Source of the DNA: Nemertoderma westbladi
Lineage: Eukaryota; Animalia; Xenacoelomorpha
Length of the DNA: 64,000 nucleotides
Direction: 5' to 3'
Assembly (NCBI GenBank): GCA_032718475.1
Contig: JAUCBJ010001598.1
Location: 1-64,000, forward strand
Shown: piece by piece, positions 1 to 64,000 of the stretch
Layout of the letters: every line of letters starts with the position of its first letter
How positions within the stretch are numbered: position 1 is the stretch's first letter
Notes under the pieces: generated by a model
The model's database searches: none
What the model saw: the letters and a program-made list of their open reading frames with translations, nothing else
What the model was told of the DNA's origin: nothing
Program-made: the position numbers and the translations under genes

Positions 1-216
1 AAAACGCGTTTTCATAATATAATTAATTTTGCCAGTTCAGCCAAAAACGTGTTTTCATATTATAATTAATTTCGCCAGTTCAGCCAAAAACGTGTTTTCA
101 TAATATAATTAATTTTGCCAGTTCAGCCAAAAACGTGTTTTCATAATATAATTAATTTTACAACATCACCAAAAACGCGTTTTCATAATATAATTAATTT
201 TGGCCGAATTCAGCCA
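1..216. repeat. 43-bp tandem repeat (about 5 copies, cut by the window start)
   Basis: Unit aaaacgYgttttcataatataattaattttgccagttcagcca recurs with period 43. Confidence 0.9.
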
Positions 217-38597: not shown

Positions 38598-38695
38598 CTG
38601 TATAGATATACTACAATGTAGTACACTTTTCTTTGAAGGCCCCCCCCCCCCAGAAGTGGTTCCCCCATGCCTGGTAACTGGTTGAATTTCCTCCC
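38598..38695 (-). pseudogene. DRC3: DRC3/LRRC48 exon remnant, founder copy of the 56-bp satellite
   Basis: Minus strand reads GRKFNQLPGMGEPL[poly-G]AFKEKCT[7-nt insert]SISIQ|gt, matching human DRC3 GNNLSYLPGVGELLETYKDKFVIICVN as recalled. The phase-0 donor fits the acceptor at 20175. Net +17 nt frameshift as assembled. Confidence 0.65.
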
Positions 38696-39232
38696 AGCTC
38701 AAAGTATTGAAATTGCGGGTTGTGCCTTAATCTTCCTTCATTGTCTTGCCGAAGGAAACGCAGTGATAACAATGCCAAAATGTATACATTAATAAAATTA
38801 TATGATATTAAAGTGAAACTGGGCTACAATGGCATTTATATCTCTAGCTGTACACAAGCTTGGCAGCATTTGATAGATATTGGTAAGATGACTAGGCCAG
38901 TGGATACAAAACTATCTGGTTGACTAATGGGTGTGTGGGTTGGGTGTTAGTGGAAGTTGATTATTCAGAGGCCATTCCTAAATCCTGAACTGTCATTGGC
39001 TGATTGGTTAATTATTGTTATCTTTGTCGTAGGTTTCTTATTTTTATACCGGTACCGGTATAATCTGTCTGTCTAGTCCAGTCCAGGAGCTGAGTCCAGT
39101 AATCTTAACTGAACGTACTTCAGTCTGTCAGTACTTGGTGGAATACGGCATTGAACATAGGCCTGTAGGCAAATGGCAGAATGGCAAAGCACATACAGAC
39201 ATCTGGACATAGTCAGATAGTTTACCTTACCG

Positions 39233-40010
39233 GATGACTAGGCACCACCTAACTCCAGATGACTTTTCTGAATCTGGACTACTTAACTTAGATAGTCGAG
39301 TTAAGCAGCTACGCCTTAACCATGTGCATAAAGTGTATAATGGTAAATGTCCCAATTACCTAAAACAAAAATTAAACAGAGTACGCGATACACACTGTTG
39401 CAATACCGGCAACCGGTACCAGATCTAGTGCTTCAAACTTCTACCTCCCGAATTGTAAATCCTTTGAATCTGATACTTTCTTTTTTAACGGCATTAAAAA
39501 ATTGGAACGCTCTGCCTAATGAAATTAAAAACCTAAATAATCAACACTCTTTTAAATATGCAGTTAAATATCACCTCCGTCAGTCCGTGTGCCGTGTGCA
39601 ATGTAAAATAGGTACAATAGTCATACAGTAAGTTATTAGTTTATTAATTATTTACTATTTATACTGTAATTACGTTTTATAATAAATTGTTCTGTACATT
39701 ACATCTTTATCGTTGAGTCGGACATTGTCACGTTCTCGACAGGCTAAAGTTGTACATGTACATAGGCCCTAGTGTAATTACTGAATTACGTTTTATATTG
39801 GTTTTAGGTTAGCGTAGTGTAATATTGTAGGCCTATTTGTAACCAAGTAACATAAAGGACCCCCTTGAAAATAAGCTGCAAAGCTTTAGGGGTACCTAAT
39901 CCTATATGTTATGTTGGACAATACCTTTATACCGGTACATTGTTAGGTGTATTCAGGTATTTGTTATTGTTTTTACATAATGTATAAATAAATCTATCTA
40001 TCTATCTATT
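39233..40010 (+). mobile_element. 3' fragment of an L2/CR1-group LINE
   Basis: LLNLDSRVKQLRLNHVHKVYNGKCPNYL and KNWNALPNEIK...SFKYAVK are typical ORF2 C-terminal motifs. A 3' stem-loop (ggacccc...ggggtacc) and AATAAA-(tcta)n tail follow. Confidence 0.7.
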
Positions 40011-41129
40011 ATTCCATATCCAGATATCTCAGGATCTGTATTCATTATTATCACACTCCCCTTGCTGCCTTGCAGCATAAAAATGCACTGCGCGTCAGAC
40101 CCGACCCATTAGATTAGATAGATACTATTGTAATGAATAAATATTCGGAAGGAATTCGGGAATAAATCCCATTGCAGCGTATATGTAGGCTGATAGGCCT
40201 ATAATGATAATTAAGTAGGCCTTTCCAGAGGTTGCGTATATCTCTCCTTAATACTAAGGTCTTCCTCTATCAATTCAGTCATCGTATATCTGTATATGTG
40301 GGAGTTCAGAGTTTATCGACAATAATGACAGGCTAGCGACTCTCGCTGCCAATATAAGCCCCTCAACCACCAACCGGCCCCCGGACGCGGACAGCCTGAG
40401 ATCCTCAGCGCCGGTGTACTGTCGTCGCTGTGCAGCTGTGTCTCTCGCCAACGTAGTAGCTACAGAGCTAAGCTATACAACGATTACAATAACCAGCGCG
40501 AGTCACTCCACTGTCTGACTGTCCGGATACTGCCATAGTGCTGCAGTTGTAGGCCTCCTAGTGCCTAGAGCTGTAGAGTCAGAGACAGAGAGAGTAGGGA
40601 CTCTACAGCAGAAACCGCATTGTATGCATTGTCAGATTGTACCGGTAGGCCTACCTACTGACCTATCTTCTCTATATCTTCAGGTGGTACGGGCAGGCAG
40701 TGCAGCAGGGTGGCATTGACATGATGGCATGTCATGTATGGGTATGCTGTGCAAGTCAGAAAGTACCGGTCAGCCGGTGGCTGGTAATTGGATTGGAGCA
40801 TGTTTGCTAAGCTTTTAGGTATTTTAGGTAGCCTACTGGTCTGCTGGTAGGTTGTAGCTGTAGGCTTGTAGCGTAGGCTGGTAGGTCTATTGTAGGTTAT
40901 CTATCAGGTTGTTACCCATACGGCCATACAGCAGTCAGGCAGTTGAAAATTGTGTGAACTACTTAAACTGAACTACTGAACTATATTCATGTTGCTGGTG
41001 AATTAGATATATTCGCAACTCATACGGTGTCTATAATTGGTTGACTCGTTGCAGCGTTGATTCAATTCCATCTCCACCTGGGGGTCAATTGGAGCAAACA
41101 ATATCGTTCTTCACATACCGGTAGTTAAC

Positions 41130-41145
41130 ATGTATGCCCAAAGAA
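41130..41145 (+). CDS. Candidate short start-codon exon of beta-catenin (MYAQR + phase-1 donor)
   Basis: ATG TAT GCC CAA AGA A|GTAAGT. Phase 1 fits the acceptor at 44099. Vertebrate CTNNB1 also starts with a tiny phase-1 ATG exon. No other support. Confidence 0.3.
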
Positions 41146-42985
41146 GTAAGTTCAGAAGTTAGATTGTTAATTCTGTAACTAGAAAGCCAGAAAGCTGGCT
41201 ATAAGAAGACCGTCTATAAGACAACAAAACCGAAAACTAAATGATAATCTAATCCCCAATCAAATATCAATCGCAATCAATGTATAAACCTCTCCCTCCC
41301 TCCATGCAGCTGTGCAGCCTTGGAGAAAGCAGAATTAATACCATGACCTGAGCAGTTCACAACAGACAACCCACCCCAACCATTGGACTTACTGAGACAC
41401 ACTCAACACTCCAACCAGCTTGCTACCTGTCTTCCCAGCTAGCTAGAGTTAAATAATTATACAACGTTGCTATGATACAGAGAAATTCCTTCCCTATTCG
41501 CTACCATAGGCAAAGTTCAGGCTGCGTGAGGGAATATTACATATTTATACAGATACACTATTTTATTTTAATCAATAAATAATCATACATCTTTATATTA
41601 AACACTCGAATATAATAAAAACTTTGTGAGAATGGGACACGGCGAATTGACCTGTGCTATTTTTATACAGCAAGAGCTTAATTTTACCCGCTTAAATAAT
41701 TAATAACCCAAATAATCGATACATTTCTTTATATAGTTGGCCACGAAGTAGAGCACTTCTTACCCTTCCAAGCCAATATCAATGTGCACAAACAAACACA
41801 CAGACGTTTTTTTTTTGACAGCAAGAAGCCCTGACGGTCTTCTAATTAATTGAGGGATTCTTAGGTGTTAGGACTATTGAGGGACGTTGCGATACCCTAC
41901 AGCCCTAGCAATACATGCAATACAAATCTAGCTTGCCGAAATATTAGGTTCCGGTACGGTAGGCCTACGCTTTAAGTTATATACCGGTAGGTCCTATAGT
42001 TTGTGGTTTATAAATGTAACTTGTATGAAATTCAAAATCTTTATGTTTACTTTTCAGTGCAGCAGTGAGTTAACATACATTTATAATGGGCCCTATAATA
42101 AACGTATTACCGGTATATAGCAATTTGATAGGATGGTTAAAATTACAAAATGATCTACCAGTAGGATCGTATTGGCCACTGCGATTTCGCGATGTCGCGA
42201 AACTATCCACCTACATTCCACATACGAGCTAACAAGCGTTACCTTCATCTTCAGATCGTGGGACCTGGGCTCCTTTACTAAGTTACATAGATTAGGCTAT
42301 ACAGTTATAGGCCTATATACTGATATATGATTTCGTTTTTTGCCTATGGCCACATCATAGTGTCATACACCTACTATAAAGAAAGACACCTAATACAGCC
42401 TAATATATATAGTATACTTTATTTACACGTTCGTGGGGCCTTCGCGCATCACGATGCTCAGTTATGAGATACAAATTAAAATTGAGGTATATTCGGATTT
42501 TCCACATTTAACAATTTTCGTAACAATTTATTTTATCAGTAATAAATTCACATTAAATATTTTATGGTACCCATTCCCCATTTGATGAGTGGCACTTATA
42601 TTTTATTTATTTTATTTTTATTTAAAACACTCAGTTTAATTTTAAAGAATAAAATATAAACAGGGGGAACACCACCTAGGTACAAATACCTAATTAGAAG
42701 TTATAATTAGATATATAAAATTACACTTACAGGTGGATAAAATACACATTTAAGTAGAAGGGCAAAGGCAACAGATAGAGGGATAAACGCTAAAATACAA
42801 ACAACAACAATAAAACTACAAGAATGACCAACGAAATAAAACCAAGTAAACAGAGATTATATCATCAAGTAAAAAAAACATAATTTGTTTCGAAAGCCAT
42901 TGATCCTTTTTATAAAAATGACAAAAATATTAAAAACTATTTGGTAGATTAAATATAAATAAAAACAAATAAAAAATATATGTGG

Positions 42986-43475
42986 TTAATTTAAAAATCT
43001 GTTAAAATGACAATATGGCAATAGATCAACATCTTTCAATTTATCAGTAAAAATATTTACATTTGCAGAATTGACAATTTCTTCGGGTAAGGAATTCCAA
43101 ATATCTACAGTTCTGTTTGAAAAAGAGTTTTTTACAATTTGTAGACGGCAAAACGATTTGAAAAGCTTACGGTTATGGCCTCTATTTCTAATATTGGTAC
43201 TTAAAGTGAAAAAGTCATTAAAATTTAGATCAACATCATTATGAAAAATACTATACACCATTTTTAAATCATAAATATGCCTACGTACTTTACTTCTAGA
43301 GGTTGTAGCTTAAGAAAATTAATTCTCTCCATGTAACTACGGCTGCCGAGGTTACAGCGCTTAAAAAGACGCCGGGTGAAGTAACGCTGAACCCGTTCGA
43401 TTAAATCAATACTACCTAACGTAAATGGAGAGCAAACGGCAGTACAATATTCTAGTAATGGTCTGGCAACATATT
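42986..43475 (-). mobile_element. 3' fragment of a CR1-type LINE
   Basis: YVARPLLEYC...IERVQRYFTRRL...SYMERI and RGHNRKL...NSFSNRTVDIWNSLPEEIV motifs, frameshifted. Confidence 0.85.
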
Positions 43476-44098
43476 TGCTTACATTAGTAGCTTTCCGCAC
43501 TCATACTGTACCTATGTTATTATCACTACGTCATATTGACAAAAGCTACAAAATCGAGTAGGCCTATAAAGCTGTTATATAATTGTTTGTTAATAATGTG
43601 TTTTTTGTGAGTAATAATTAAGTTCCTTGCCTTTTTTTGTTTCTAGTCTACGTATGTATATCCTTCACATTTTAAATAATTGCACTGCAAACTTGATATT
43701 ATAAATAATTACCGGTGTAGCAGAGAATTTCCACCTGAGATTTGGGGATTGATAATTCCGTTGTATTATTATAGTAGACAGATACTAAACCAAACCAAAG
43801 TCGCAACAATTCTACTTACCGTACTTATAAGAGGACGGGGTTCGTGATTAGTAGTTATTATTAAAAAGTGCCCCCACTCGGCTATATAGAGTGCACCCTC
43901 GGTTGCTACTGGGTTGCGATTATTAGCATGTTATAGTATATACTGTTCTTTACTGTGTAGCTGAGTGAACCGACTTTGTATCTGGGTCACACAAATTTAA
44001 ATGGTCTTATAGGCCATGGCGGCTCTACCCATGTCGGGATATATATTTAATTAAATATTATTGCACATCATAACACATCATTAAATATTATTTTCTAG

Positions 44099-44335
44099 CT
44101 GGATATGTTGACCTCAACCAAATCCCGCAATCCGACCCCAAGGCGAGCACCATGCAGTGGCAGCAGAGTTACCATGGCGACAGCGGGGTCCAGTCTGGGT
44201 CTACGACCCACGCCCATTCGATGAGCAGTAGGGACAGGCGTGACTCTGAGATGGACGATGAATTGGATCCAGCCAAGCTCTTGTATGATTGGGAGACAAA
44301 CTACGGACACGGGTACACACCCCAGCAGGTCGATG
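44099..44335 (+). CDS. CTNNB1: Beta-catenin exon carrying the phosphodegron
   Basis: Acceptor ttttctag|. WQQSYHGDSGVQSGSTTHAHS contains the DSGxxS degron with S33/S37/T41/S45 equivalents. LYDWE...GYTPQQVD follows. Phase-1 donor G|GTAAGT. Confidence 0.92.
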
Positions 44336-44817
44336 GTAAGTAAATACAAACTACGGACACGGGTACATACCCCAGCAGGTCGACGGTAAGTAAATACAAA
44401 CTACGGACACGGGTACACACCCCAGCAGGTCGACGGTAAGTAAATACAAACTACGGACACGGGTACACACCCCAGCAGGTCGATGGTAAGTAAATACAAA
44501 CTACGGACACGGGTACACGGGTACACACCCCAGCAGGTCGACGGTAAGTAAATACAAACTACGGACACGGGTACACACCCCAGCAGGTCGACGGTAAGTA
44601 AATACAAACTACGGACACGGGTACACGGGTACACACCCCAGCAGGTCGACGGTAAGTAAATACAAACTACGGACACGGGTACACACCCCAGCAGGTCGAT
44701 GGTAAGTAAATACAAACTACGGACACGGGTACACGCTACACGGGTACACGGGTACACACCCCAGCAGGTCGATGGTAAGTAAATACAAACTACGGACACG
44801 GGTACACACCCCAGCAG
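44296..44817 (+). repeat. 50-bp minisatellite: last 40 nt of the beta-catenin exon plus first 10 nt of the intron (10 copies, 9 intact GTAAGT donors)
   Basis: Unit acaaactacggacacgggtacacaccccagcaggtcgaYg|gtaagtaaat. Some copies carry internal gggtacac duplications. Confidence 0.95.
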
Positions 44818-46333
44818 TACTAAGTACACGGCACGAGACGGGGGATACACAAACCACGTTCTGTCTGTGCTAGTGTTATATTATGTAATAACGAGAGAGT
44901 GATACTGCCCCGTAGTTAATAATGGTAACTGACATAGGCCTACACCTTCAGTCTTCAGTTGTTCACCATGTCAATGATAATGAATATTGAATAATAGTCT
45001 AAAAATGGGTTAATAGTGTACGATCAGTCTTATGCATGAATTGTGAAATTATTGATAATGTTTTAACTTGTAAATAAAAATTCTGACTCACAGAAAACAA
45101 CTCTATGTGCAGGGTTTTTTTTTTCAAAATGTCCGCTGTGAGAAGTTTCTTAAACGGCGAGGAAAAATTTAGAAAATCTCTAATTTATTTAGGAACCAAA
45201 ATAATTTGCCCAATGACGAATTTGAAAGATTAATTTTGAAACGTAGGCCATGCATTACTTCCTGTATTGCTTTGTTTTCTACTTTATTCAACCATACGGC
45301 ATTGTACTGGTAAGTCGTATGTCGTACAGTATATGTCATAAGTCAAAATAAATTATGGAACACATTGGTTTCATTGGGAGTGCTCCCTGTTCCATCATTT
45401 GACATACGACTCATGAGTTATATCCGGCAAGAGGCCTGTGATTGGTTACTTTGGGTACCAGCAAGCCAGAAAATATTGTACATCAATTTATGGTGTTCCA
45501 TTAACTCTTAGGCGCATCTTATATTTTTTAAGAAAAGACTTATGACTTATCAGTGGATCACCGGAGATATATGCCTACTTTTGATTTTAACATCGACGGA
45601 CTCAGACAAAATCTGAAAGCGATTTTATGACATACGACTCATGAGTTACCAGTGGGGCGCGGGCCTACGTTATCTTATATATCATCCGAAATATTAAACT
45701 AATAGAGACCTACTACTCTATGTAATGCAGCTTTGGTAAATTAATGCCATTTTTATTGGGAAGGAATATTCCACATAATTGGGGTGTTGGGACAGTAAAA
45801 TAAGTATAAAATTTATATGACTATAAATTATGGGAATGTCAGTGAAACACTCGTAGACTGTAACACAGTCGATGTCGATCTACTTAGAAATAAACAATAC
45901 CACGAGAAATGAGTGAGTTTATTCGATATTATAGAATTTGGTACAAATGAAGCTGATGGAGATGAATCAGATTTAGAGGATCAATTATTCGATTCTGGTG
46001 AATAAACAAGGAACAAACAACATTAATAATAAATTAAAATGGTTAATCTTAAATTTTGATTTACAGGTGTTTTTATTTCAAACGCTGTAGTAAAGTTTAT
46101 ATTTTTCAATTCGTTGTTTGCAATATTTACGTTTATAAATATTTCTAAACAAGTTTAAAAATTTTATAAATCACTATTTTTATTTATAAATTTCACTAAC
46201 ATATTTAGAAAAAAAAAACTCTGATATGTCGGTTTATGGTCGTTTTGTCATTATCGCGTTACGATTTGTATACGGATTTTTTATGTACCTGAATTAAGTG
46301 CAGTAGATTTCAATATATTTTATTTGTTTATAG

Positions 46334-46587
46334 AAATGAGTCACCAGTTGAACGAGACTCGATCGCAACGCGTCCGTGCGGCGATGTTCCCCGAGACTAT
46401 GGGCGAGGTAACGGGGATCCCGTCTACTCAGTTTGACCCGGCTCATCCCACCGCCGTACAACGCCTCAGCGAGCCCTCACAGATGCTCAAACACGCCGTC
46501 ATTAACCTGATTAACTACCAGGACGACGCAGATCTCGCTACCCGCTGCATACCGGAGCTCACTAGACTGCTCAATGATGAGGACCAG
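46334..46587 (+). CDS. CTNNB1: Beta-catenin exon (alpha-catenin-binding region, start of ARM1)
   Basis: [14 protein letters not shown]...[47 protein letters not shown]. Acceptor tttatag|, donor CAG|GT. Confidence 0.96.
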
Positions 46588-47408
46588 GTTGGTAATGGTA
46601 GGATCTTTGTCACGTTGCTCAACCTGCACCCTATATTTGATTACGTTCCATATACGTGGCTTTCTGCGCCTTCCGTGTGGTTAAATAATATTTATAATGT
46701 TTATCAGCCTGTTTTTACACGTCACCTTTACACCCATACCGGGTGTCGGTGTTTCAGTTTCAATATTTTAATTAAAATTTGGTCCCCGGAAATGACAGAA
46801 GTTACTTATTTGATACCATAATCCATAATGAATTGCAATTCAATCAAGTAGGTAAATTTGAACGGCGCAGGGCCGGGGGCGTCTGTGAACATCAACATTT
46901 CGGAAAAAAATTATATCTAGGCATTCCTTGTCTCCATGAGCCTAAAACATTATTCCATTCAATGTATTTATTGAAATGATGTCCCTGTTGTTTATTGCCG
47001 CACTATAGCCCGGCCCACCATTACCGCGATGCTACCAATGTCATCTTAGCAACTGCAGTCTATCGTCATTTATTATCACGATTATAGTATATCGATATAT
47101 CCTAATGTTTATCTTTTTCATTATGCGTCAATTATGCATCCTGCGTAGCCGCAATATACTAAATAATAGGATGGGCGGACAACTTTACGTGTTTACCTAC
47201 TTATTTTTATAACAAACGATCGATAATAGTCATAATAATAGGGTCTAACTGCAAGTTTCAGTTTACGCGGAACAAACTCCATGGATCTGAGTTATTCGTT
47301 GAAACTACCCAGGTCCAGGAAATTATTTCATACTGTATTAACGTTCATAGGTCCAGGGGTCCCAGGGGAAAAAATATTTTTTCCTTCCTATCATGTCATT
47401 GCATATCT

Positions 47409-48085
47409 TATAATAAACATAGAAGATCAAATTTTTAGAACAGTGATTGTTTCTTAGTCATTCCATTTTATATTGAAAATATTTGACTTCAAAGTTTGCC
47501 CTAATATCGCAGTTATCAAAATAAAAAATGCACTTGTTATGAATTTGGCTGGAAATGATAAAAAAATTCATGTTTACTAAAACTTTTCTTGTCATTACAT
47601 AAGTATTAAAGTCTAATGTAAGGAAAAACATCCAAAATGTAATTCTGGGTAATATTACATTACATTTTTAGTTTTTCAGTTACATTTTTTAATTATCTTG
47701 TAAGTTGTACTGGATTATTCACATACTTTACTCTTTGTGGCATTTTAGAGCACATAACAGTCTTACTTTGTATGCTTAACCAAACCATGGCTTACCAAAT
47801 GTAGTGGAAGCTTAGAAATTAAAACTTTTAGTTATATTATGTTACGTTGTTACAAACGAAAAGTAACATTTCATTCGTAAAGTTGGTCACAACTATATTA
47901 TCCAGAATTACATTTTGGATGTTTTTCTTCACATTAGGCATTAATACTTATACAATGACAAGACCAATTTTAGTAAACATCAATTTCTTATCATTTTGAG
48001 CCAAATTCAAAATATGGGCAATTCATGGAATGACCAAAAAACAATCACTGTTCTAGAAAATTTGATCTTCTATGTTTTATTATAT
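47409..48085. mobile_element. Fold-back/MITE-like element with long (about 200-250 bp) imperfect inverted arms
   Basis: 47410-47466 is the reverse complement of 48026-48085, and 47542-47656 is the reverse complement of 47892-48008. Confidence 0.7.
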
Positions 48086-48571
48086 AAAACATATATTTGT
48101 ATACAATATGAATGAACATAATTTAATTTGCAAATGAAGTAGTGGTCTTAAATGTAACACACGTAACGTAACACACGTAACGGGAGTCACTCGCATTTTT
48201 GGTCTACTACTTCAGTCAGAATTGGTTTTATTCCTTGCAACTATTTTATTTATCATTTTAGATATTTAATTTTTTATGAAATTTAACTTACATTATTTGT
48301 CCAATTTTGGGTGCATTTCATGTGTAACACGCGTAACACTTTTTTAAATGCTTACTGTGAATCTAATATTTACTTTGTTCAATAATATTTCACATACACA
48401 ACATGGAATAACCAAACAATTATACAGAAACTAAAAGTTATTGTTTGTGAAGTGTTTTCTAATAAAATTTGCATGATGAACTTCAAAAATCGTGTCAGGA
48501 TGAAACACACGTAACATGGAATGGACCCATAGAGGATCGTCAAGTTAACCTGCTTGTTTGTTTGTGTGTAG

Positions 48572-48810
48572 GTCGTGGTGAGCCAGGCTGCTAACATGGT
48601 GCACCAGATATCCAAAAAGGACGCATCTCGTCACGCCATATCGAATTCGCCCCAGATGGTCGCCGCTGTTATTAATGCGATGCACAACACGAACGACGCG
48701 GAGACCACCCGCTGCGCTGCAGGCACACTCCACGAGCTGAGTAAACAGCAGACCGGGCTGCTACAGATATTTAAGAGCGGAGGAATTCCAGCCCTCGTCA
48801 AGCTACTGGG
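48572..48810 (+). CDS. CTNNB1: Beta-catenin exon (ARM repeats 1-3)
   Basis: [32 protein letters not shown]...AAGTLHELS...[18 protein letters not shown]. Phase-2 donor GG|GTTAGT. Confidence 0.96.
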
Positions 48811-49163
48811 GTTAGTTGCGTTCCTAGGCAAATTTAAATTTAGTACCGGTAATATTTGTTTTATTTTAGAGAGAAAAATATAAAAAATCTGGCTCGGAAA
48901 TCTCATTTACTTTTATCTTGTATAACCACATCAGTTAGCTGACATTAGATATTGGTTCGGGGCAGATCGTCTTCATTATTTCACAATTTAAAATATATGA
49001 AGTTGGTAAAAACCGCACATGTTTGGACGGACATGGGGGGGGGGGGGGGGGGGGGGTGTCTGAAAATCCGAAATTTTCTCTAACGACCTTTATGGACGAC
49101 CCCTTGCACTTTTGTGCATATTTTATTTCTCAGACACCAAATAACTGACTACTACTATCTATT

Positions 49164-52100
49164 ATTGGTTTCCTAGTTGAGTCTGTACTATTCTACGCTA
49201 TCATTTGTTTCCCAGGCACCCCGTTGAGTCTGTACTATTCTACGCTATCATTTGTTTCCCATGCACTCCGTTGAGTCTGTACTATTCTACGCTATCATTT
49301 GTTTCCCAGGCACCCCGTTGAGTCTGTACTATTCTACGCTATCATTTGTTTCCCAGACACCCCGTTGAGTCTGTACTATTCTACGCTATAATTTGTTTCC
49401 CAGGCACCCCGTTGAGTCTGTACTATTCTACGCTATCATTTGTTTCCCAGGCACCCCGTTAAGTCTGTACTATTCTACGCTATCATTTGTTTCCCAGGCA
49501 CCCCGTTGAGTCTACTATTCTACGCTATCATTTGTTTCCCAGGCACCCCGTTGAGTCTGTACTATTCTACGCTATCATTTGTTTCCCAGACACCCCGTTG
49601 AGTCTGTACTATTCTACGCTATCATTTGTTTCCCATGCACCCCGTTGAGTCTGTACTATTCTACATTATCATTTGTTTCCCAGGCACCCCGTTGAGTCTG
49701 TACTATTCTACGCTATCCTTTGTTTCCCAGGCACCCCGTTGAGTCTACTATTCTACGCTATCATTTGTTTCCCAGGCACCCCGTTGAGTCTGTACTATTC
49801 TACGCTATCATTTGTTTCCCAGGCACCCCGTTGCGTCTACTATTCTACGCTATCATTTGTTTCCCAGGCACCCCGTTGAGTCTACTATTCTACGCTATCA
49901 TTTGTTTCCCATGCACTCCGTTGAGTCTACTATTCTACGCTATCATTTGTTTCCCAGGCACCCCGTTGAGTCTGTACTATTCTACGCTATCATTTGTTTC
50001 CCAGGCACCCCGTTGAGTCTACTATTCTACGCTATCATTTGTTTCCCATGCACTCCGTTGAGTCTACTATTCTACGCTATCATTTGTTTCCCAGGCACCC
50101 CGTTGAGTCTACTATTCTACGCTATCATTTGTTTCCCATGCACCCCGTTGAGTCTGTACTATTCTACGCTATCATTTGTTTCCCAGGCACCCCGTTGAGT
50201 CTACTATTCTACGCTATCATTTGTTTCCCATGCACTCCGTTGAGTCTACTATTCTACGCTATCATTTGTTTCCCAGGCACCCCGTTGAGTCTACTATTCT
50301 ACGCTATCATTTGTTTCCCATGCACCCCGTTGAGTCTGTACTATTATACGCTATCATTTGTTTCCCAGGCACCCCGTTGAGTCTACTATTCTACGCTATC
50401 ATTTGTTTCCCATGCACTCCGTTGAGTCTACTATTCTACGCTATCATTTGTTTCCCAGGCACCCCGTTGAGTCTACTATTCTACGCTATCATTTGTTTCC
50501 CATGCACCCCGTTGAGTCTGTACTATTCTACGCTATCATTTGTTTCCCAGGCACCCCGTTGAGTCTACTATTCTACGCTATCATTTGTTTCCCATGCACT
50601 CCGTTGAGTCTACTATTCTACGCTATCATTTGTTTCCCAGGCACCCCGTTGAGTCTACTATTCTACGCTATCATTTGTTTCCCATGCACCCCGTTGAGTC
50701 TGTACTATTATACGCTATCATTTGTTTCCCAGGCACCCCGTTGAGTCTACTATTCTACGCTATCATTTGTTTCCCATGCACTCCGTTGAGTCTACTATTC
50801 TACGCTATCATTTGTTTCCCAGGCACCCCGTTGAGTCTACTATTCTACGCTATCATTTGTTTCCCATGCACCCCGTTGAGTCTGTACTATTCTACGCTAT
50901 CATTTGTTTCCCAGGCACCCCGTTGAGTCTACTATTCTACGCTATCATTTGTTTCCCATGCACTCCGTTGAGTCTACTATTCTACGCTATCATTTGTTTC
51001 CCAGGCACCCCGTTGAGTCTACTATTCTACGCTATCATTTGTTTCCCATGCACCCCGTTGAGTCTGTACTATTATACGCTATCATTTGTTTCCCAGGCAC
51101 CCCGTTGAGTCTACTATTCTACGCTATCATTTGTTTCCCAGGCACGCCGTTGAGTCTACTATTCTACATTATCATTTGTTTCCCAGGCACCTCGTTGAGT
51201 CTGTACTATTATACGCTATCATTTGTTTCCCAGGCACCCCGTTGAGTCTACTATTCTACGCTATCATTTGTTTCCCAGGCACGCCGTTGAGTCTACTATT
51301 CTACATTATCATTTGTTTCCCAGGCACCCCGTTGAGTCTGTACTATTCTACGCTATCCTTTGTTTCCCAGGTACCCCGTTGAGTCTGTACTATTCTACGC
51401 TATCATTTGTTTCCCATGCACCCCGTTGAGTCTACTATTCTACATTATCATTTGTTTCCCATGCACCCCGTTGAGTCTGTACTATTCTACGCTATCATTT
51501 GTTTCCCAGGCACTCCGTTGAGTCTACTATTCTACGCTATCATTTGTTTCCCAGGCACCCCGTTGAGTCTACTATTCTACGCTATCATTTGTTTCCCAGG
51601 CACCCCGTTGAGTCTACTATTCTACGCTATCATTTGTTTCCCAGGCACTCCGTTGAGTCTGTACTATTCTACGCTGTCATTTGTTTCCCAGGCACGCCGT
51701 TGAGTCTGTACTATTCTACGCTATCATTTGTTTCCCAGGCACCCTGTTGAGTCTGTCTGTACTATTCTACGCTACCATTTGTTTCCCAGGTACCCCGTTG
51801 AGTCTGTACTATTCTACGCTATCATTTGTTTCCCAGGCACTCCGTTGCGTCTACTATTCTACGCTATCGTTTGTTTCCCAGGCACCCTGTTGAGTCTGTA
51901 CTATTCTACGCTATCATTTGTTTCCCAGACACCCCGTTGAGTCTGTACTATTCTACGCTATCATTTGTTTCCCAGGCACCCCGTTGAGTCTACTATTCTA
52001 CGCTATCATTTGTTTCCCAGGCACCCTGTTGAGTCTACTATTCTACGCTATCATTTGTTTCCCAGGCACCCCGTTGAGTCTGTACTATTCTACGCTATCA

Positions 52101-55100
52101 TTTGTTTCCCAGACACCCCGTTGAGTCTGTACTATTCTACGCTATCATTTGTTTCCCAGGTACCCCGTTGAGTCTGTACTATTCTACGCTATCATTTGTT
52201 TCCCAGGCACCCCGTTGAGTCTGTACTATTCTACGCTATCATTTGTTTCCCAGGTACCCCGTTGAGTCTGTACTATTCTACGCTATCATTTGTTTCCCAG
52301 GTACCCCGTTGAGTCTGTACTATTCTACGCTATCATTTGTTTCCCAGACACCCCGTTGAGTCTGTACTATTCTACGCTATCATTTGTTTCCCAGGTACCC
52401 CGTTGAGTCTGTACTATTCTACGCTATCATTTGTTTCCCAGGCACCCTGTTGAGTCTACTATTCTACGCTATCATTTGTTTCCCAGGCACCCCGTTGAGT
52501 CTGTACTATTCTACATTATCATTTGTTTCCCAGGCACCCCGTTGAGTCTGTACTATTCTACGCTATCATTTGTTTCCCAGACACCCCGTTGAGTCTGTAC
52601 TATTCTACGCTATCATTTGTTTCCCAGACACCCCGTTGAGTCTGTACTATTCTACGCTATCATTTGTTTCCCAGACACCCCGTTGAGTCTGTACTATTCT
52701 ACGCTATCATTTGTTTCCCAGACACCCCGTTGAGTCTGTACTATTATACGCTATCATTTGTTTCCCAGGCACCCTGTTGAGTCTACTATTCTACGCTATC
52801 ATTTGTTTCTCAGGCACCCCGTTGAGTCTGTACTATTCTACGCTATCATTTGTTTCCCAGGCACCCCGTTGAGTCTGTACTATTATACGCTATCATTTGT
52901 TTCCCAGGCACCCCGTTGAGTCTACTATTCTACGCTATCATTTGTTTCCCATGCACCCCGTTGAGTCTACTATTCTACGCTATCATTTGTTTCCCAGACA
53001 CCCCGTTGAGTCTGTACTATTATACGCTATCATTTGTTTCCCAGGCACCCTGTTGAGTCTACTATTCTACGCTATCATTTGTTTCCCAGGCACCCCGTTG
53101 AGTCTGTACTATTCTACATTATCATTTGTTTCCCAGGCACCCCGTTGAGTCTGTACTATTCTACGCTATCATTTGTTTCCCAGGCACCCTGTTGAGTCTG
53201 TACTATTCTACGTTATCATTTTTTTCCCAGGCACCCTGTTGAGTCTGTCTGTACTATTCTACGCTATCATTTCTTTCCCAGGCACCCTGTTGAGTCTGTA
53301 CTATTCTACGCTATTATTTGTTTCCCAGGCACCCCGTTGCGTCTGTCTGTACTATTCTACGCTACCATTTGTTTCCCAGGCACCCCGTTGAGTCTACAAT
53401 TCTACGCTATCATTTGTTTCCCATGCACCCCGTTGAGTCTGCCTGTACTATTCTACGCTATCATTTGTTTCCCAGGCACCCTGTTGAGTCTGTACTATTC
53501 TACGCTATCATTTGTTTCCCAGGCACCCCGTTGAGTCTGTCTGTACTATTCTACGCTACCATTTGTTTCCCAGGCACCCCGTTGAGTCTGTACTATTCTA
53601 CGCTACCATTTGTTTCCCAGGCACCCCGTTGAGTCTGTACTATTCTACGCTATCATTTGTTTCCCAGGCACCCCGTTGAGTCTGTACTATTCTACGCTAT
53701 CATTTGTTTCCCAGGCACCCCGTTGAGTCTGTCTGTACTATTCTACGCTATCATTTGTTTCCCAGGCACCCTGTTGAGTCTGTCTGTACTATTCTACGCT
53801 ATCATTTGTTTCCCAGGCACCCTGTTGAGTCTGTCTGTACTATTCTACGCTATCATTTGTTTCCCAGGCACCCCGTTGAGTCTGTACTATTCTACGCTAT
53901 CATTTGTTTCCCAGGCACCCCGTTGAGTCTGTCTGTACTATTCTACGCTATCATTTGTTTCCCAGGCACCCCGTTGAGTCTGTCTGTACTATTCTACGCT
54001 ATCATTTGTTTCCCAGGCACCCTGTTGAGTCTGTCTGTACTATTCTACGCTATCATTTGTTTCCCAGGCACCCCGTTGAGTCTGTACTATTCTACGCTAT
54101 CATTTGTTTCCCAGGCACCCCGTTGAGTCTGTACTATTCTACGCTATCATTTGTTTCCCAGGCACCCCGTTGAGTCTACAATTCTACGCTATCATTTGTT
54201 TCCCAGACACCCCGTTGAGTCTACAATTCTACGCTATCATTTGTTTCCCAGGCACCCCGTTGAGTCTGTCTGTACTATTCTACGCTATCATTTGTTTCCC
54301 AGGCACCCTGTTGAGTCTGTCTGTACTATTCTACGCTATCATTTGTTTCCCAGGCACCCCGTTGAGTCTGTACTATTCTACGCTATCATTTGTTTCCCAG
54401 GCACCCCGTTGAGTCTGTACTATTCTACGCTATCATTTGTTTCCCAGGCACCCCGTTGAGTCTGTACTATTCTACGCTATCATTTGTTTCCCAGGCACCC
54501 CGTTGAGTCTGTACTATTCTACGCTATCATTTGTTTCCCAGGCACCCCGTTGAGTCTGTCTGTACTATTCTACGCTATCATTTGTTTCCCAGGCACCCTG
54601 TTGAGTCTGTCTGTACTATTCTACGCTATCATTTGTTTCCCAGGCACCCCGTTGAGTCTGTACTATTCTACGCTATTATTTGTTTCCCAGGCACCCCGTT
54701 GAGTCTGTACTATTCTACGCTATCATTTGTTTCCCAGGCACCCCGTTGAGTCTACAATTCTACGCTATCATTTGTTTCCCAGACACCCCGTTGAGTCTAC
54801 AATTCTACGCTATCATTTGTTTCCCAGGCACCCCGTTGAGTCTGTCTGTACTATTCTACGCTATCATTTGTTTCCCAGGCACCCCGTTGAGTCTGTACTA
54901 TTCTACGCTATCACTTGTTTCCCAGGCACCCCGTTGAGTCTGTACTATTCTACGCTATCATTTGTTTCCCAGGCACCCCGTTGAGTCTGTACTATTCTAC
55001 GCTATCATTTGTTTCCCAGGCACCCCGTTGAGTCTGTACTATTCTACGCTATCATTTGTTTCCCAGGCACCCCGTTGAGTCTGTACTATTCTACGTTAGC

Positions 55101-58100
55101 ATTTGTTTCCCAGGCACCCCGTTGAGTCTGTACTATTCTACGCTATCATTTGTTTCCCAGGCACCCCGTTGAGTCTGTACTATTCTACGCTATCATTTGT
55201 TTCCCAGGCACCCCGTTGAGTCTGTACTATTCTACGTTAGCATTTGTTTCCCAGGCACCCCGTTGAGTCTGTACTATTCTACGCTATCATTTGTTTCCCA
55301 GGCACCCCGTTGAGTCTGTACTATTCTACGCTATCATTTGTTTCCCAGGCACCCCGTTGAGTCTGTACTATTCTACGTTAGCATTTGTTTCCCAGGCACC
55401 CCGTTGAGTCTGTACTATTCTACGCTATCATTTGTTTCCCAGGCACCCCGTTGAGTCTGTACTATTCTACGCTATCATTTGTTTCCCAGGTACCCCGTTG
55501 AGTCTGTACTATTCTACGCTATCATTTGTTTCCCAGACACCCCGTTGAGTCTGTACTATTCTACGCTATCATTTGTTTCCCAGGCACCCCGTTGAGTCTG
55601 TACTATTCTACGCTATCATTTGTTTCCCAGGCACCCCGTTGAGTCTACAATTCTACGCTATCATTTGTTTCCCAGGCACCCCGTTGAGTCTGCCTGTACT
55701 ATTCTACGCTATCATTTGTTTCCCAGGCACCCTGTTGAGTCTGTACTATTCTACGCTATCATTTGTTTCCCAGGCACCCCGTTGAGTCTGTCTGTACTAT
55801 TCTACGCTATCATTTGTTTCCCAGGCACCCCGTTGAGTCTGTACTATTCTACGCTATCATTTGTTTCCCAGGCACCCCGTTGAGTCTACAATTCTACGCT
55901 ATCATTTGTTTCCCAGGCACCCCGTTGAGTCTGTACTATTCTACATTATCATTTGTTTCCCAGGCACCCCGTTGAGTCTACTATTCTACATTATCATTTG
56001 TTTCCCAGGCACCCCGTTGAGTCTGTACTATTCTACGCTATCATTTGTTTCCCAGGCACCCCGTTGAGTCTGTACTATTCTACGCTATCCTTTGTTTCCC
56101 AGACACCCCGTTGAGTCTGTACTATTCTACGCTATCATTTGTTTCCCATGCACCCCGTTGAGTCTACAATTATACGCTATCATTTGTTTCCCAGGCACCC
56201 TGTTGAGTCTGTCTGTACTATTCTACGCTATCATTTGTTTCCCAGACACCCCGTTGAGTCTGTACTATTCTACGCTATCCTTTGTTTCCCAGACACCCCG
56301 TTGAGTCTGTACTATTCTACGCTATCATTTGTTTCCCATGCACCCCGTTGAGTCTACTATTCTACGCTATCATTTGTTTCCCAGGCACTCCGTTGAGTCT
56401 GTACTATTCTACGCTGTCATTTGTTTCCCAGGCACGCCGTTGAGTCTGTACTATTCTACGCTATCATTTGTTTCCCAGGCACCCCGTTGAGTCTGTACTA
56501 TTCTACGCTATCATTTGTTTCCCAGGCACCCTGTTGAGTCTGTCTGTACTATTCTACGCTACCATTTGTTTCCCAGGCACCCCGTTGAGTCTACAATTCT
56601 ACGCTATCATTTGTTTCCCAGGCACCCCGTTGAGTCTGTACTATTCTACATTATCATTTGTTTCCCAGGCACCCCGTTGAGTCTACTATTCTACATTATC
56701 ATTTGTTTCCCAGGCACTCCGTTGAGTCTGTCTGTACTATTCTACGCTATCATTTGTTTCCCAGGCACCCTGTTGAGTCTGTCTGTACTATTCTACGCTA
56801 CCATTTGTTTCCCAGGCACCCCGTTGAGTCTACAATTCTACGCTATCATTTGTTTCCCAGGCACCCCGTTGAGTCTGTACTATTCTACATTATCATTTGT
56901 TTCCCAGGCACCCCGTTGAGTCTACTATTCTACGCTAGCATTTGTTTCCCAGACACCCCGTTGAGTCTGTACTATTCTACGCTATCCTTTGTTTCCCAGA
57001 CACCCCGTTGAGTCTGTACTATTCTACGCTATCATTTGTTTCCCATGCACCCCGTTGAGTCTACTATTCTACGCTATCATTTGTTTCCCAGGCACTCCGT
57101 TGAGTCTGTACTATTCTACGCTGTCATTTGTTTCCCAGGCACGCCGTTGAGTCTGTACTATTCTACGCTATCATTTGTTTCCCAGGCACCCTGTTGAGTC
57201 TGTCTGTACTATTCTACGCTACCATTTGTTTCCCAGGTACCCCGTTGAGTCTGTACTATTCTACGCTATCATTTGTTTCCCAGGCACTCCGTTGCGTCTA
57301 CTATTCTACGCTATCATTTGTTTCCCAGGCACCCTGTTGAGTCTGTACTATTCTACGCTATCATTTGTTTCCCAGACACCCCGTTGAGTCTGTACTATTC
57401 TACGCTATCATTTGTTTCCCAGGCACTCCGTTGAGTCTACTATTCTACGCTATCATTTGTTTCCCAGGCACCCCGTTGAGTCTACTATTCTACGCTATAA
57501 TTTGTTTCCCAGGCACCCCGTTGAGTCTACTATTCTACGCTATCATTTGTTTCCCAGGCACCCCGTTGAGTCTGTACTATTCTACGCTAGCATTTGTTTC
57601 CCAGGCACCCCGTTGAGTCTACTATTCTACGCTATCATTTGTTTCCCAGGCACTCCGTTGAGTCTGTACTATTCTACGCTATCATTTGTTTCCCAGGCAC
57701 CCCGTTGAGTCTGTACTATTCTACGCTATCATTTGTTTCCCAGGCACCCCGTTGAGTCTACTATTCTACGCTATCATTTGTTTCCCAGGCACCCCGTTGA
57801 GTCTGTACTATTCTACGCTAGCATTTGTTTCCCAGGCACCCCGTTGAGTCTACTATTCTACGCTATCATTTGTTTCCCAGGCACTCCGTTGAGTCTGTAC
57901 TATTCTACGCTGTCATTTGTTTCCCAGGCACGCCGTTGAGTCTGTACTATTCTACGCTATCATTTGTTTCCCAGGCACCCTGTTGAGTCTGTCTGTACTA
58001 TTCTACGCTACCATTTGTTTCCCAGGTACCCCGTTGAGTCTGTACTATTCTACGCTATCATTTGTTTCCCAGGCACTCCGTTGCGTCTACTATTCTACGC

Positions 58101-61100
58101 TATCATTTGTTTCCCAGGCACCCTGTTGAGTCTGTACTATTCTACGCTATCATTTGTTTCCCAGACACCCCGTTGAGTCTGTACTATTCTACGCTATCAT
58201 TTGTTTCCCAGGCACCCCGTTGAGTCTACTATTCTACGCTATCATTTGTTTCCCAGGCACCCTGTTGAGTCTACTATTCTACGCTATCATTTGTTTCCCA
58301 GGCACCCCGTTGAGTCTGTACTATTCTACGCTATCATTTGTTTCCCAGACACCCCGTTGAGTCTGTACTATTCTACGCTATCATTTGTTTCCCAGGTACC
58401 CCGTTGAGTCTGTACTATTCTACGCTATCATTTGTTTCCCAGGCACCCCGTTGAGTCTGTACTATTCTACGCTATCATTTGTTTCCCAGGTACCCCGTTG
58501 AGTCTGTACTATTCTACGCTATCATTTGTTTCCCAGGTACCCCGTTGAGTCTGTACTATTCTACGCTATCATTTGTTTCCCAGACACCCCGTTGAGTCTG
58601 TACTATTCTACGCTATCATTTGTTTCCCAGGTACCCCGTTGAGTCTGTACTATTCTACGCTATCATTTGTTTCCCAGGCACCCTGTTGAGTCTACTATTC
58701 TACGCTATCATTTGTTTCCCAGGCACCCCGTTGAGTCTGTACTATTCTACATTATCATTTGTTTCCCAGGCACCCCGTTGAGTCTGTACTATTCTACGCT
58801 ATCATTTGTTTCCCAGACACCCCGTTGAGTCTGTACTATTCTACGCTATCATTTGTTTCCCAGACACCCCGTTGAGTCTGTACTATTATACGCTATCATT
58901 TGTTTCCCAGGCACCCTGTTGAGTCTACTATTCTACGCTATCATTTGTTTCCCAGGCACCCCGTTGAGTCTGTACTATTCTACGCTATCATTTGTTTCCC
59001 AGACACCCCGTTGAGTCTGTACTATTATACGCTATCATTTGTTTCCCAGGCACCCTGTTGAGTCTACTATTCTACGCTATCATTTGTTTCTCAGGCACCC
59101 CGTTGAGTCTGTACTATTCTACGCTATCATTTGTTTCCCAGGCACCCCGTTGAGTCTGTACTATTATACGCTATCATTTGTTTCCCAGGCACCCCGTTGA
59201 GTCTACTATTCTACGCTATCATTTGTTTCCCATGCACCCCGTTGAGTCTACTATTCTACGCTATCATTTGTTTCCCAGACACCCCGTTGAGTCTGTACTA
59301 TTATACGCTATCATTTGTTTCCCAGGCACCCTGTTGAGTCTACTATTCTACGCTATCATTTGTTTCCCAGGCACCCCGTTGAGTCTGTACTATTCTACAT
59401 TATCATTTGTTTCCCAGGCACCCCGTTGAGTCTGTACTATTCTACGCTATCATTTGTTTCCCAGGCACCCTGTTGAGTCTGTACTATTCTACGTTATCAT
59501 TTTTTTCCCAGGCACCCTGTTGAGTCTGTCTGTACTATTCTACGCTATCATTTCTTTCCCAGGCACCCTGTTGAGTCTGTACTATTCTACGCTATTATTT
59601 GTTTCCCAGGCACCCCGTTGCGTCTGTCTGTACTATTCTACGCTACCATTTGTTTCCCAGGCACCCCGTTGAGTCTACAATTCTACGCTATCATTTGTTT
59701 CCCATGCACCCCGTTGAGTCTGCCTGTACTATTCTACGCTATCATTTGTTTCCCAGGCACCCTGTTGAGTCTGTACTATTCTACGCTATCATTTGTTTCC
59801 CAGGCACCCCGTTGAGTCTGTCTGTACTATTCTACGCTACCATTTGTTTCCCAGGCACCCCGTTGAGTCTGTACTATTCTACGCTACCATTTGTTTCCCA
59901 GGCACCCCGTTGAGTCTGTACTATTCTACGCTATCATTTGTTTCCCAGGCACCCCGTTGAGTCTGTACTATTCTACGCTATCATTTGTTTCCCAGGCACC
60001 CCGTTGAGTCTGTCTGTACTATTCTACGCTATCATTTGTTTCCCAGGCACCCTGTTGAGTCTGTCTGTACTATTCTACGCTATCATTTGTTTCCCAGGCA
60101 CCCTGTTGAGTCTGTCTGTACTATTCTACGCTATCATTTGTTTCCCAGGCACCCCGTTGAGTCTGTACTATTCTACGCTATCATTTGTTTCCCAGGCACC
60201 CCGTTGAGTCTGTCTGTACTATTCTACGCTATCATTTGTTTCCCAGGCACCCCGTTGAGTCTGTCTGTACTATTCTACGCTATCATTTGTTTCCCAGGCA
60301 CCCTGTTGAGTCTGTCTGTACTATTCTACGCTATCATTTGTTTCCCAGGCACCCCGTTGAGTCTGTACTATTCTACGCTATCATTTGTTTCCCAGGCACC
60401 CCGTTGAGTCTGTACTATTCTACGCTATCATTTGTTTCCCAGGCACCCCGTTGAGTCTACAATTCTACGCTATCATTTGTTTCCCAGACACCCCGTTGAG
60501 TCTACAATTCTACGCTATCATTTGTTTCCCAGGCACCCCGTTGAGTCTGTCTGTACTATTCTACGCTATCATTTGTTTCCCAGGCACCCTGTTGAGTCTG
60601 TCTGTACTATTCTACGCTATCATTTGTTTCCCAGGCACCCCGTTGAGTCTGTACTATTCTACGCTATCATTTGTTTCCCAGGCACCCCGTTGAGTCTGTA
60701 CTATTCTACGCTATCATTTGTTTCCCAGGCACCCCGTTGAGTCTGTACTATTCTACGCTATCATTTGTTTCCCAGGCACCCCGTTGAGTCTGTACTATTC
60801 TACGCTATCATTTGTTTCCCAGGCACCCCGTTGAGTCTGTCTGTACTATTCTACGCTATCATTTGTTTCCCAGGCACCCTGTTGAGTCTGTCTGTACTAT
60901 TCTACGCTATCATTTGTTTCCCAGGCACCCCGTTGAGTCTGTACTATTCTACGCTATTATTTGTTTCCCAGGCACCCCGTTGAGTCTGTACTATTCTACG
61001 CTATCATTTGTTTCCCAGGCACCCCGTTGAGTCTACAATTCTACGCTATCATTTGTTTCCCAGACACCCCGTTGAGTCTACAATTCTACGCTATCATTTG

Positions 61101-64000
61101 TTTCCCAGGCACCCCGTTGAGTCTGTCTGTACTATTCTACGCTATCATTTGTTTCCCAGGCACCCCGTTGAGTCTGTACTATTCTACGCTATCACTTGTT
61201 TCCCAGGCACCCCGTTGAGTCTGTACTATTCTACGCTATCATTTGTTTCCCAGGCACCCCGTTGAGTCTGTACTATTCTACGCTATCATTTGTTTCCCAG
61301 GCACCCCGTTGAGTCTGTACTATTCTACGCTATCATTTGTTTCCCAGGCACCCCGTTGAGTCTGTACTATTCTACGTTAGCATTTGTTTCCCAGGCACCC
61401 CGTTGAGTCTGTACTATTCTACGCTATCATTTGTTTCCCAGGCACCCCGTTGAGTCTGTACTATTCTACGCTATCATTTGTTTCCCAGGCACCCCGTTGA
61501 GTCTGTACTATTCTACGTTAGCATTTGTTTCCCAGGCACCCCGTTGAGTCTGTACTATTCTACGCTATCATTTGTTTCCCAGGCACCCCGTTGAGTCTGT
61601 ACTATTCTACGCTATCATTTGTTTCCCAGGCACCCCGTTGAGTCTGTACTATTCTACGTTAGCATTTGTTTCCCAGGCACCCCGTTGAGTCTGTACTATT
61701 CTACGCTATCATTTGTTTCCCAGGCACCCCGTTGAGTCTGTACTATTCTACGCTATCATTTGTTTCCCAGGTACCCCGTTGAGTCTGTACTATTCTACGC
61801 TATCATTTGTTTCCCAGACACCCCGTTGAGTCTGTACTATTCTACGCTATCATTTGTTTCCCAGGCACCCCGTTGAGTCTGTACTATTCTACGCTATCAT
61901 TTGTTTCCCAGGCACCCCGTTGAGTCTACAATTCTACGCTATCATTTGTTTCCCAGGCACCCCGTTGAGTCTGCCTGTACTATTCTACGCTATCATTTGT
62001 TTCCCAGGCACCCTGTTGAGTCTGTACTATTCTACGCTATCATTTGTTTCCCAGGCACCCCGTTGAGTCTGTCTGTACTATTCTACGCTATCATTTGTTT
62101 CCCAGGCACCCCGTTGAGTCTGTACTATTCTACGCTATCATTTGTTTCCCAGGCACCCCGTTGAGTCTACAATTCTACGCTATCATTTGTTTCCCAGGCA
62201 CCCCGTTGAGTCTGTACTATTCTACATTATCATTTGTTTCCCAGGCACCCCGTTGAGTCTACTATTCTACATTATCATTTGTTTCCCAGGCACCCCGTTG
62301 AGTCTGTACTATTCTACGCTATCATTTGTTTCCCAGGCACCCCGTTGAGTCTGTACTATTCTACGCTATCCTTTGTTTCCCAGACACCCCGTTGAGTCTG
62401 TACTATTCTACGCTATCATTTGTTTCCCATGCACCCCGTTGAGTCTACAATTATACGCTATCATTTGTTTCCCAGGCACCCTGTTGAGTCTGTCTGTACT
62501 ATTCTACGCTATCATTTGTTTCCCAGACACCCCGTTGAGTCTGTACTATTCTACGCTATCCTTTGTTTCCCAGACACCCCGTTGAGTCTGTACTATTCTA
62601 CGCTATCATTTGTTTCCCATGCACCCCGTTGAGTCTACTATTCTACGCTATCATTTGTTTCCCAGGCACTCCGTTGAGTCTGTACTATTCTACGCTGTCA
62701 TTTGTTTCCCAGGCACGCCGTTGAGTCTGTACTATTCTACGCTATCATTTGTTTCCCAGGCACCCCGTTGAGTCTGTACTATTCTACGCTATCATTTGTT
62801 TCCCAGGCACCCTGTTGAGTCTGTCTGTACTATTCTACGCTACCATTTGTTTCCCAGGCACCCCGTTGAGTCTACAATTCTACGCTATCATTTGTTTCCC
62901 AGGCACCCCGTTGAGTCTGTACTATTCTACATTATCATTTGTTTCCCAGGCACCCCGTTGAGTCTACTATTCTACATTATCATTTGTTTCCCAGGCACTC
63001 CGTTGAGTCTGTCTGTACTATTCTACGCTATCATTTGTTTCCCAGGCACCCTGTTGAGTCTGTCTGTACTATTCTACGCTACCATTTGTTTCCCAGGCAC
63101 CCCGTTGAGTCTACAATTCTACGCTATCATTTGTTTCCCAGGCACCCCGTTGAGTCTGTACTATTCTACATTATCATTTGTTTCCCAGGCACCCCGTTGA
63201 GTCTACTATTCTACGCTAGCATTTGTTTCCCAGACACCCCGTTGAGTCTGTACTATTCTACGCTATCCTTTGTTTCCCAGACACCCCGTTGAGTCTGTAC
63301 TATTCTACGCTATCATTTGTTTCCCATGCACCCCGTTGAGTCTACTATTCTACGCTATCATTTGTTTCCCAGGCACTCCGTTGAGTCTGTACTATTCTAC
63401 GCTGTCATTTGTTTCCCAGGCACGCCGTTGAGTCTGTACTATTCTACGCTATCATTTGTTTCCCAGGCACCCTGTTGAGTCTGTCTGTACTATTCTACGC
63501 TACCATTTGTTTCCCAGGTACCCCGTTGAGTCTGTACTATTCTACGCTATCATTTGTTTCCCAGGCACTCCGTTGCGTCTACTATTCTACGCTATCATTT
63601 GTTTCCCAGGCACCCTGTTGAGTCTGTACTATTCTACGCTATCATTTGTTTCCCAGACACCCCGTTGAGTCTGTACTATTCTACGCTATCATTTGTTTCC
63701 CAGGCACTCCGTTGAGTCTACTATTCTACGCTATCATTTGTTTCCCAGGCACCCCGTTGAGTCTACTATTCTACGCTATAATTTGTTTCCCAGGCACCCC
63801 GTTGAGTCTACTATTCTACGCTATCATTTGTTTCCCAGGCACCCCGTTGAGTCTGTACTATTCTACGCTAGCATTTGTTTCCCAGGCACCCCGTTGAGTC
63901 TACTATTCTACGCTATCATTTGTTTCCCAGGCACTCCGTTGAGTCTGTACTATTCTACGCTATCATTTGTTTCCCAGGCACCCCGTTGAGTCTGTACTAT
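49164..64000 (+). repeat. 47-bp satellite (about 315 units in the window, continues past the end): 3' splice site plus first 34 nt of the next beta-catenin exon
   Basis: Unit atttgtttcccag|G CAC CCC GTT GAG TCT GTA CTA TTC TAC GCT ATC encodes (G)HPVESVLFYAI, continuing [11 protein letters not shown] as in beta-catenin GSPVDSVLFYAITTLHNL. 45- and 51-bp variants occur. Higher-order periods are 182 bp and about 6.28 kb. Confidence 0.96.

Follow-up and report, generated by a model that had tools for sequence, protein, structure and literature searches.

A beta-catenin gene of Nemertoderma westbladi carries, inside one intron, a tandem array of 315 units, each of which repeats the end of that intron together with the start of the next exon. 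We analysed positions 1-64,000 of the forward strand of contig JAUCBJ010001598.1 (assembly GCA_032718475.1), hereafter the window, together with contigs from further runs under the organism's label. We have good reason to regard the array as a mirage minisatellite, a repeat whose unit spans an exon boundary, in a working beta-catenin gene, where splicing likely uses the last copy only, probably through exon definition.

An array of acceptors in the beta-catenin gene

The 5' part of the gene lies on the forward strand in three exons (44099-44335, 46334-46587 and 48572-48810); its start codon is placed upstream of the first of these, in a separate exon. Exon 44099-44335, identified by comparison with the N-termini of homologues, retains the spacing DSGxxS...T...S, which we take to be the CK1/GSK3 degron of the beta-catenin N-terminus. 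The second exon (46334-46587) matches 1,360 proteins, and the informative names among the best 120 of these are beta-catenin or armadillo, with up to 85% identity. Exon 48572-48810 faces the array; its best match in the PDB is beta-catenin (E = 1e-33; plakoglobin, 5.5e-29), and it terminates at 48810 in a phase-2 GT donor, as stated in the first-pass annotation, which was made from the letters of the window. Joined to the exon part of one repeat unit, the three exons form a single open frame of 253 codons. Within the same best 120 of 1,360 matches, the closest homologues reach about 67-70% identity to this frame, with sea urchin, acorn worm, crinoid, arthropods and unnamed records tied at this level.

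Tandem Repeats Finder reports the array on the forward strand from 49176 to 64000, with a period of 47 bp, 315.3 copies and a score of 24676, and it continues past the window end. In each head-to-tail unit, the last 13 nt of the intron are followed by the first 34 nt of the next beta-catenin exon. Parsing the units yielded 315 acceptor anchors and 314 complete units of 52 distinct types, with lengths of 47 bp (178 units), 45 bp (90 units) and 51 bp (46 units). The acceptor AG is retained in 288 of the 315 units and has become AT in the other 27, a loss neither faster nor slower than the change at other columns of the unit. The approximately 300 copies of the beta-catenin 3' splice site first described are thus present. 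The accompanying claim that every intact monomer reads G-HPVESVLFYAI applies to only 108 of the 288 AG units and fails for the rest, and the frame is shifted inside the exon part in the 136 complete units (of 314) that are 45 or 51 bp long. In total, the array extends over at least 14.8 kb and the intron that holds it over at least 15.2 kb.

These properties are those of a mirage: a tandem unit of minisatellite size spans the boundary, a splice signal persists in many but not all units, and concerted evolution has spared the boundary unit, with inner units only 0-3 substitutions from the modal unit and a divergent boundary copy. Splicing to an upstream copy would truncate the protein, as had been predicted from a decoy product that corresponds to pure 47-mers. 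Within the window, translation from 285 of the 288 AG decoys meets a stop 10-137 codons on, well short of the next junction; the frames of the other three are still open at the window end. The continuation expected after the exon start, TTLHNLL, had been described as missing from the window, and TLHN, LHNL and HNLL indeed occur in none of its six frames.

The array in other samples

Six runs carry one organism label, none of them recorded as RNA, and the contigs of four (X1-X4) were compared with 46300-49250. X2 and X3 stem from the same sample, and X1 and X2 represent two samples other than that of the window. Contigs of X1 and X2 run from unique intron into the array (flank junction, records 8 and 16), a tandem joint that goes back 45 letters is found in X1, X2 and X3, and the 51-bp variant is found in X2. 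At position 49227, depth reaches 12,678 in X1 versus 28-34 on single-copy exons (about 375-446-fold) and 4,281 in X2 versus 19-20 (about 210-221-fold). Both the tandem joint and the flank junction recur in DNA from two other samples, so the array is genuine rather than artefactual, and it is common to the window and these two samples. At several exon positions these samples agree with each other and differ from the window, so that none looks like the window's own haplotype.

The exact length of the array is less secure. Self-comparison revealed two identical forward-strand blocks of 5,044 bp (52676-57719 and 58957-64000), offset by 6,281 bp or 133 units; the second block reaches the window end. 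Either an unequal crossover in the very recent past or the assembly itself produced this duplicate, and the unit count could be inflated. That the array, or much of its length, was created by the assembly is nevertheless very improbable. Such an origin would account for the exact duplication, as well as for the depth at 49227 in X3, which is only about 6-fold even though the sample is that of X2. It is contradicted by the ordered pattern of the 52 unit types and by the flank junction, tandem joint, 51-bp variant and several-hundred-fold depths in contigs of other samples. At most the exact number is doubtful, with 209 units standing before the second copy of the block, and the disparity between X2 and X3 means that depth is not usable as copy number.

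As a separate observation, the beta-catenin intron upstream of exon 48572-48810 contains a multi-copy element with inverted parts (47358-48527), which is marked by opposite-strand joints and a depth of several hundred in X1-X4.

A probable spliced message in run X4

Run X4, labelled 'DNA?', is likely RNA judging from its behaviour, since it is spliced and does not cover unique intron. One X4 contig joins 46585 to 48570 at a depth of 542, skipping 1,984 nt with GT..AG ends and connecting the second exon to the third; the same joint has depth 0 in X1, X2 and X3, and X4 has depth 0 in the unique-intron bins 46597-47289. Before 49215, X4 shows a loose end of 16 letters that is identical to the final letters of the donor exon (window positions 48794-48809). 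A second loose end, of 255 letters, lies behind 49248, and its first 30 letters read in frame I-I-T-L-H-N-L-L-L-H, the helix that comes next in homologues. The mean depth of the bin 49171-49250 is 296.8, which equals 698.3 x 34/80; X4 cover is therefore confined to 49215-49248 and is zero on the intron part of the unit.

With X4 read as RNA, the main message contains one exon-start copy, in frame, and this copy would be the terminal unit, beyond position 64000. The in-frame junction agrees with the earlier proposal that the gene is spliced past its decoys. The continuation pattern suggested for recognising the real exon, YAITTLHN, has to be replaced: X4 reads A-I-I-T-L-H-N, and the pattern would miss the exon.

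The first-pass annotation also considered that the locus might be disabled. We give hardly any credence to the idea that this allele or locus is inactive and that another beta-catenin copy does the work. The somewhat divergent sequence, about 70% identical over 253 residues to the closest named homologues (best 120 of 1,360 matches), would be in line with it, but the three exons and the exon part of the unit keep one open frame, the degron is retained, the X4 junction is spliced in frame, and the X4 spliced contig differs from the window by only 2 and 1 letters in the two exons.

Probable choice of the last acceptor

We propose that the acceptor in use would be that of the terminal unit beyond 64000, selected by exon definition as the only copy that would have the rest of the exon and a donor behind it. 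Exon definition is the best reading because these two features set the last copy apart from otherwise near-identical units, and among the options listed in the first-pass annotation it fits best, at the strength of a probable account. Taken singly, the decoys may be weak: each has 13 nt of intron and is accompanied by neither a consensus branch motif nor a good donor, and the copy backed by the whole exon would win over them. Rare leaked transcripts would carry premature stops, and nonsense-mediated decay (NMD) would clear them. The repeat itself is most likely a tolerated by-product without function.

The letters of the array are consistent with weak decoys. No yTnAy branch motif occurs in the whole array, and for 237 of the 288 AGs nothing beyond a minimal TNA lies 19-37 nt upstream, the range given in one report (PMC10078293). 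Donor-like 9-mers in the array agree with the consensus at 6 of 9 positions at best (15 units), and the common one at 4 of 9; the three real donors of the gene agree at 6-7 of 9. Two further candidates were rejected. Selection against branch motifs is too weakly indicated, as 12 of 141 possible single changes would create a motif and none is seen. Nor does RNA structure hide the AG: the fold of three units is not more stable than that of shuffled sequences (z 0.96), 163 of 200 of which reach the same stability.

Several points, besides the shallow X3 cover, weigh against the use of the last copy by exon definition. X4 is recorded only as 'DNA?', and a recorded RNA run is absent among the six. 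The donor side of the key junction comprises 16-17 letters, under the 31-letter bridging rule, and appears as a loose end rather than a joint; in addition, the cover of X4 has a hole between 48739 and the donor. The X4 sample differs from that of the window, and its contigs do not display the array. The terminal unit and the real exon are placed beyond the window, the exon being read from X4 alone. Contigs drop rare variants, so X4 gives no leakage rate. The absence of a branch motif is weak evidence because shuffled monomers also miss it (the relaxed motif in 21% and the strict motif in 62%), as do 2 of the 6 true acceptors in the window. Moreover, exon definition alone is insufficient to reject the last two or three decoys, which lie 47-141 nt upstream; their exclusion would take enhancers within the exon or a rule that favours the nearest site. 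A literature search for the classic competition experiments with duplicated splice sites found nothing relevant.

A rather unlikely alternative is that splicing is leaky and masked by NMD, with frequent use of decoys, destruction of their products and an array length that tunes the dose of beta-catenin in the manner of the variable number tandem repeat (VNTR) of ABCA7. All 285 decoys that can be read to a stop do terminate, and steady-state contigs would hide NMD targets. At ABCA7, retention of one unit and splicing that shifts with VNTR length have been described (PMC5954066), as this alternative would have it. However, no mis-spliced contig is found among the X4 contigs listed (where contigs drop rare forms and NMD would hide decoy products), and the depth arithmetic places X4 cover on the exon part only. 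The AG is neither specially kept nor removed, with the 27 losses occurring at a rate like that of other columns, and amphioxus mirages are reported without aberrant mRNA (PMC3087553, PMC3902484). It is improbable, in our view, that the array acts as a length-variable rheostat on beta-catenin, in which a share of transcripts is diverted to decoys and ends in NMD or an in-frame insert. If placed second-last, 116 of 287 AG units (45- or 51-mers) would add an in-frame insert of 15 or 17 residues in the armadillo region. Were the rheostat real, Wnt output would vary with repeat length between individuals.

Recursive splicing acts on long introns at internal ratchet points and had been offered as a means of coping with the decoys. 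Stepwise removal of the intron at AG|GT ratchet points in the array appears extremely unlikely to us. The intron is long here too (at least 15.2 kb), contains internal AGs and has a few AG|GT sites, in 15 of 315 units. Yet these sites are repeat variants rather than conserved single sites, and none combines AG|GT with a strong regenerated donor: the regenerated donor agrees with the consensus at 4 of 9 positions versus 6-7 of 9 for the three real donors. A single C>T change, propagated as the array turned over, would account for the AG|GT variant, several copies of which lie inside the exact duplicate.

A second mirage at a donor of the same gene

The gene contains a second, donor-side mirage on the forward strand (44296-44817), detected by Tandem Repeats Finder and by parsing of its units. 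It comprises nine tandem donor copies and a degenerate last unit without a donor. The units, of 50/58 bp, consist of 40 nt of exon and 10 nt of intron and copy the donor at 44335; each of the eight later donors leads to an immediate stop. In X4, a 30-letter loose end before 46333 links the end of exon 44099-44335 to the next exon, and it is too short to tell which donor was used.

Boundary copy and proposed origin of the array

Directly in front of the array, forward-strand positions 49140-49176 are likely the old intron end, as judged from the letters of the window. They comprise a consensus branch motif, CTGAC (A at 49148), located 28 nt before the AG at 49175-76, and a pyrimidine tract. This AG belongs to an earlier boundary copy that the first-pass annotation had overlooked. 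Three of the 18 intron letters in this copy deviate from the modal unit, 8 nt of its exon start are missing, and its use would yield Gly-stop.

A 7-nt microhomology suggests how the first unit may have arisen. Intron letters 49159-65 recur at exon positions +30..36 (the last three letters of this copy being taken from the X4 loose end), and their spacing of 18 + 29 = 47 nt corresponds to one unit. The first duplication may have occurred by mispairing at this microhomology, which would explain both the unit length and the register. Subsequent growth would have proceeded by unequal crossover, as suggested by the higher-order blocks.

In both beta-catenin mirages, the end copy on the intron side is damaged at the splice junction: the donor is lost at 44785-44830, and 8 exon letters are lost at 49159-49203. 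These are two cases only, and chance or boundary decay may account for them.

Other features of the window

The window contains another large array, with a 56-bp unit, at 22070-38132. It comprises about 240 units in a 1,257-bp higher-order repeat, with a longest exact run of 1,242 bp, and stray units occur near 21170-21200 and 38570-38660. Read on either strand, the 56-bp unit resembles a splice boundary. Inspection by eye of 36 open reading frames (ORFs) at 38100-44100 revealed no host exon, and the TTC7 gene on the other side ends at 12374. Two related reverse-transcriptase pieces with a FADD motif, long interspersed nuclear element-like by eye, lie in opposite orientations in this array (24512-25995, forward strand; 21230-22070, reverse strand), and both terminate in short TAG runs that resemble the 56-bp unit. 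A 24-bp array at 20269-21036 (32.5 copies) displays a donor-like GTAAGT in each unit on the minus strand, with no host gene identified.

The TTC7 gene occupies 498-12374 on the forward strand (Pfam TTC7_N, E = 5.6e-46) and encodes 844 codons in only three coding exons; a homologue search with its first exon gave no match at 1e-20. A dispersed duplication, 95% identical over 410 bp, connects 3392-3990 with 8896-9430. It seems to reach a decayed copy of the TTC7 exon-2 acceptor with about 20 exon letters near 3958, roughly 5.5 kb before the real one. A two-exon ORF of 172 codons (17501-17566 and 18273-18725, forward strand) features a hydrophobic start, a basic cleavage-like site and many cysteines. 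By eye it is cystine-knot cytokine-like, and a Pfam search with the exon at 18273-18722 returned no family. Finally, long reading-frame pieces at 14400-16500 on the reverse strand are DNA-transposon-like by eye.

Comparison with known systems and significance

The first-pass annotation treated the arrangement as unprecedented, whereas the beta-catenin array belongs to the known class of mirage minisatellites. In amphioxus, mirage minisatellites have been described in the globin genes BflGb6 and BflGb9 and in Adh3 (PMC3087553), as well as in troponin C and PGBD5, where they comprise 2-7 copies (PMC3902484). They are found at 5' or 3' boundaries (PMC3087553, PMC3902484), their units measure 10-160 bp, boundary units escape homogenisation, and the splice signal persists in many units but is lost from others (PMC3087553). 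In BflGb6, the repeat combines the 3' end of an intron with the 5' part of an exon, in 6 and 3 units, and splicing is regular (Ebner et al.; PMC3087553). The beta-catenin array is similar in its unit of intron end and exon start, its spared boundary unit and, with X4 read as RNA, its regularly spliced message. It differs in size, with at least 315 units (at least 209 outside the exact duplicate), at least 14.8 kb and higher-order blocks in contrast to the 2-7 copies of amphioxus, and in its host, an essential developmental gene.

Related cases are found in human genes. In CBS 844ins68, an intron/exon junction is duplicated, splicing strongly prefers the distal copy, and normal mRNA is made (PMC2630376); this is a single polymorphic insertion with two copies, whereas the beta-catenin array has hundreds. 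The donor-side VNTR in intron 18 of ABCA7 can attain a length of 10.7 kb, or about 427 units, and splicing there is leaky (PMC5954066), and the pseudo-donors of the F7 IVS7 VNTR are silent (PMC1557585). Both resemble the present arrays in that the minisatellite includes a splice site, and the silent F7 pseudo-donors are reminiscent of the nine-copy donor array described above. In both, however, the repeat lies on the donor side and the first transcribed copy is the correct one, while here it would be the last acceptor, separated from the first decoy by at least 14.8 kb. Leakage is measurable in ABCA7, and none was seen at the beta-catenin array with our blunter, contig-level method. More generally, minisatellites can alter gene structure (PMC2812944). 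Our literature search, which covered mainly papers outside subscription and not their supplements, brought up no acceptor-side array with hundreds of copies. What is new is the acceptor-side size and the essential host gene; the gain is one of scale rather than kind, as the class and its outcome have already been described.

Here an essential gene likely tolerates some 300 decoys, nearly identical to one another, in front of its true acceptor. First-come scanning of acceptors predicts the opposite. The locus would be a natural test that a spliceosome can pass some 290 near-identical acceptors made minutes earlier and commit to the last alone. It may therefore serve as a substrate for asking how far exon definition overrides co-transcriptional order, and how decoys only 47-141 nt away are rejected. 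With a donor and an acceptor mirage in one gene, the first-donor and last-acceptor rules can be tested together. For annotation, the locus is also a warning that boundary-spanning arrays can break gene models.

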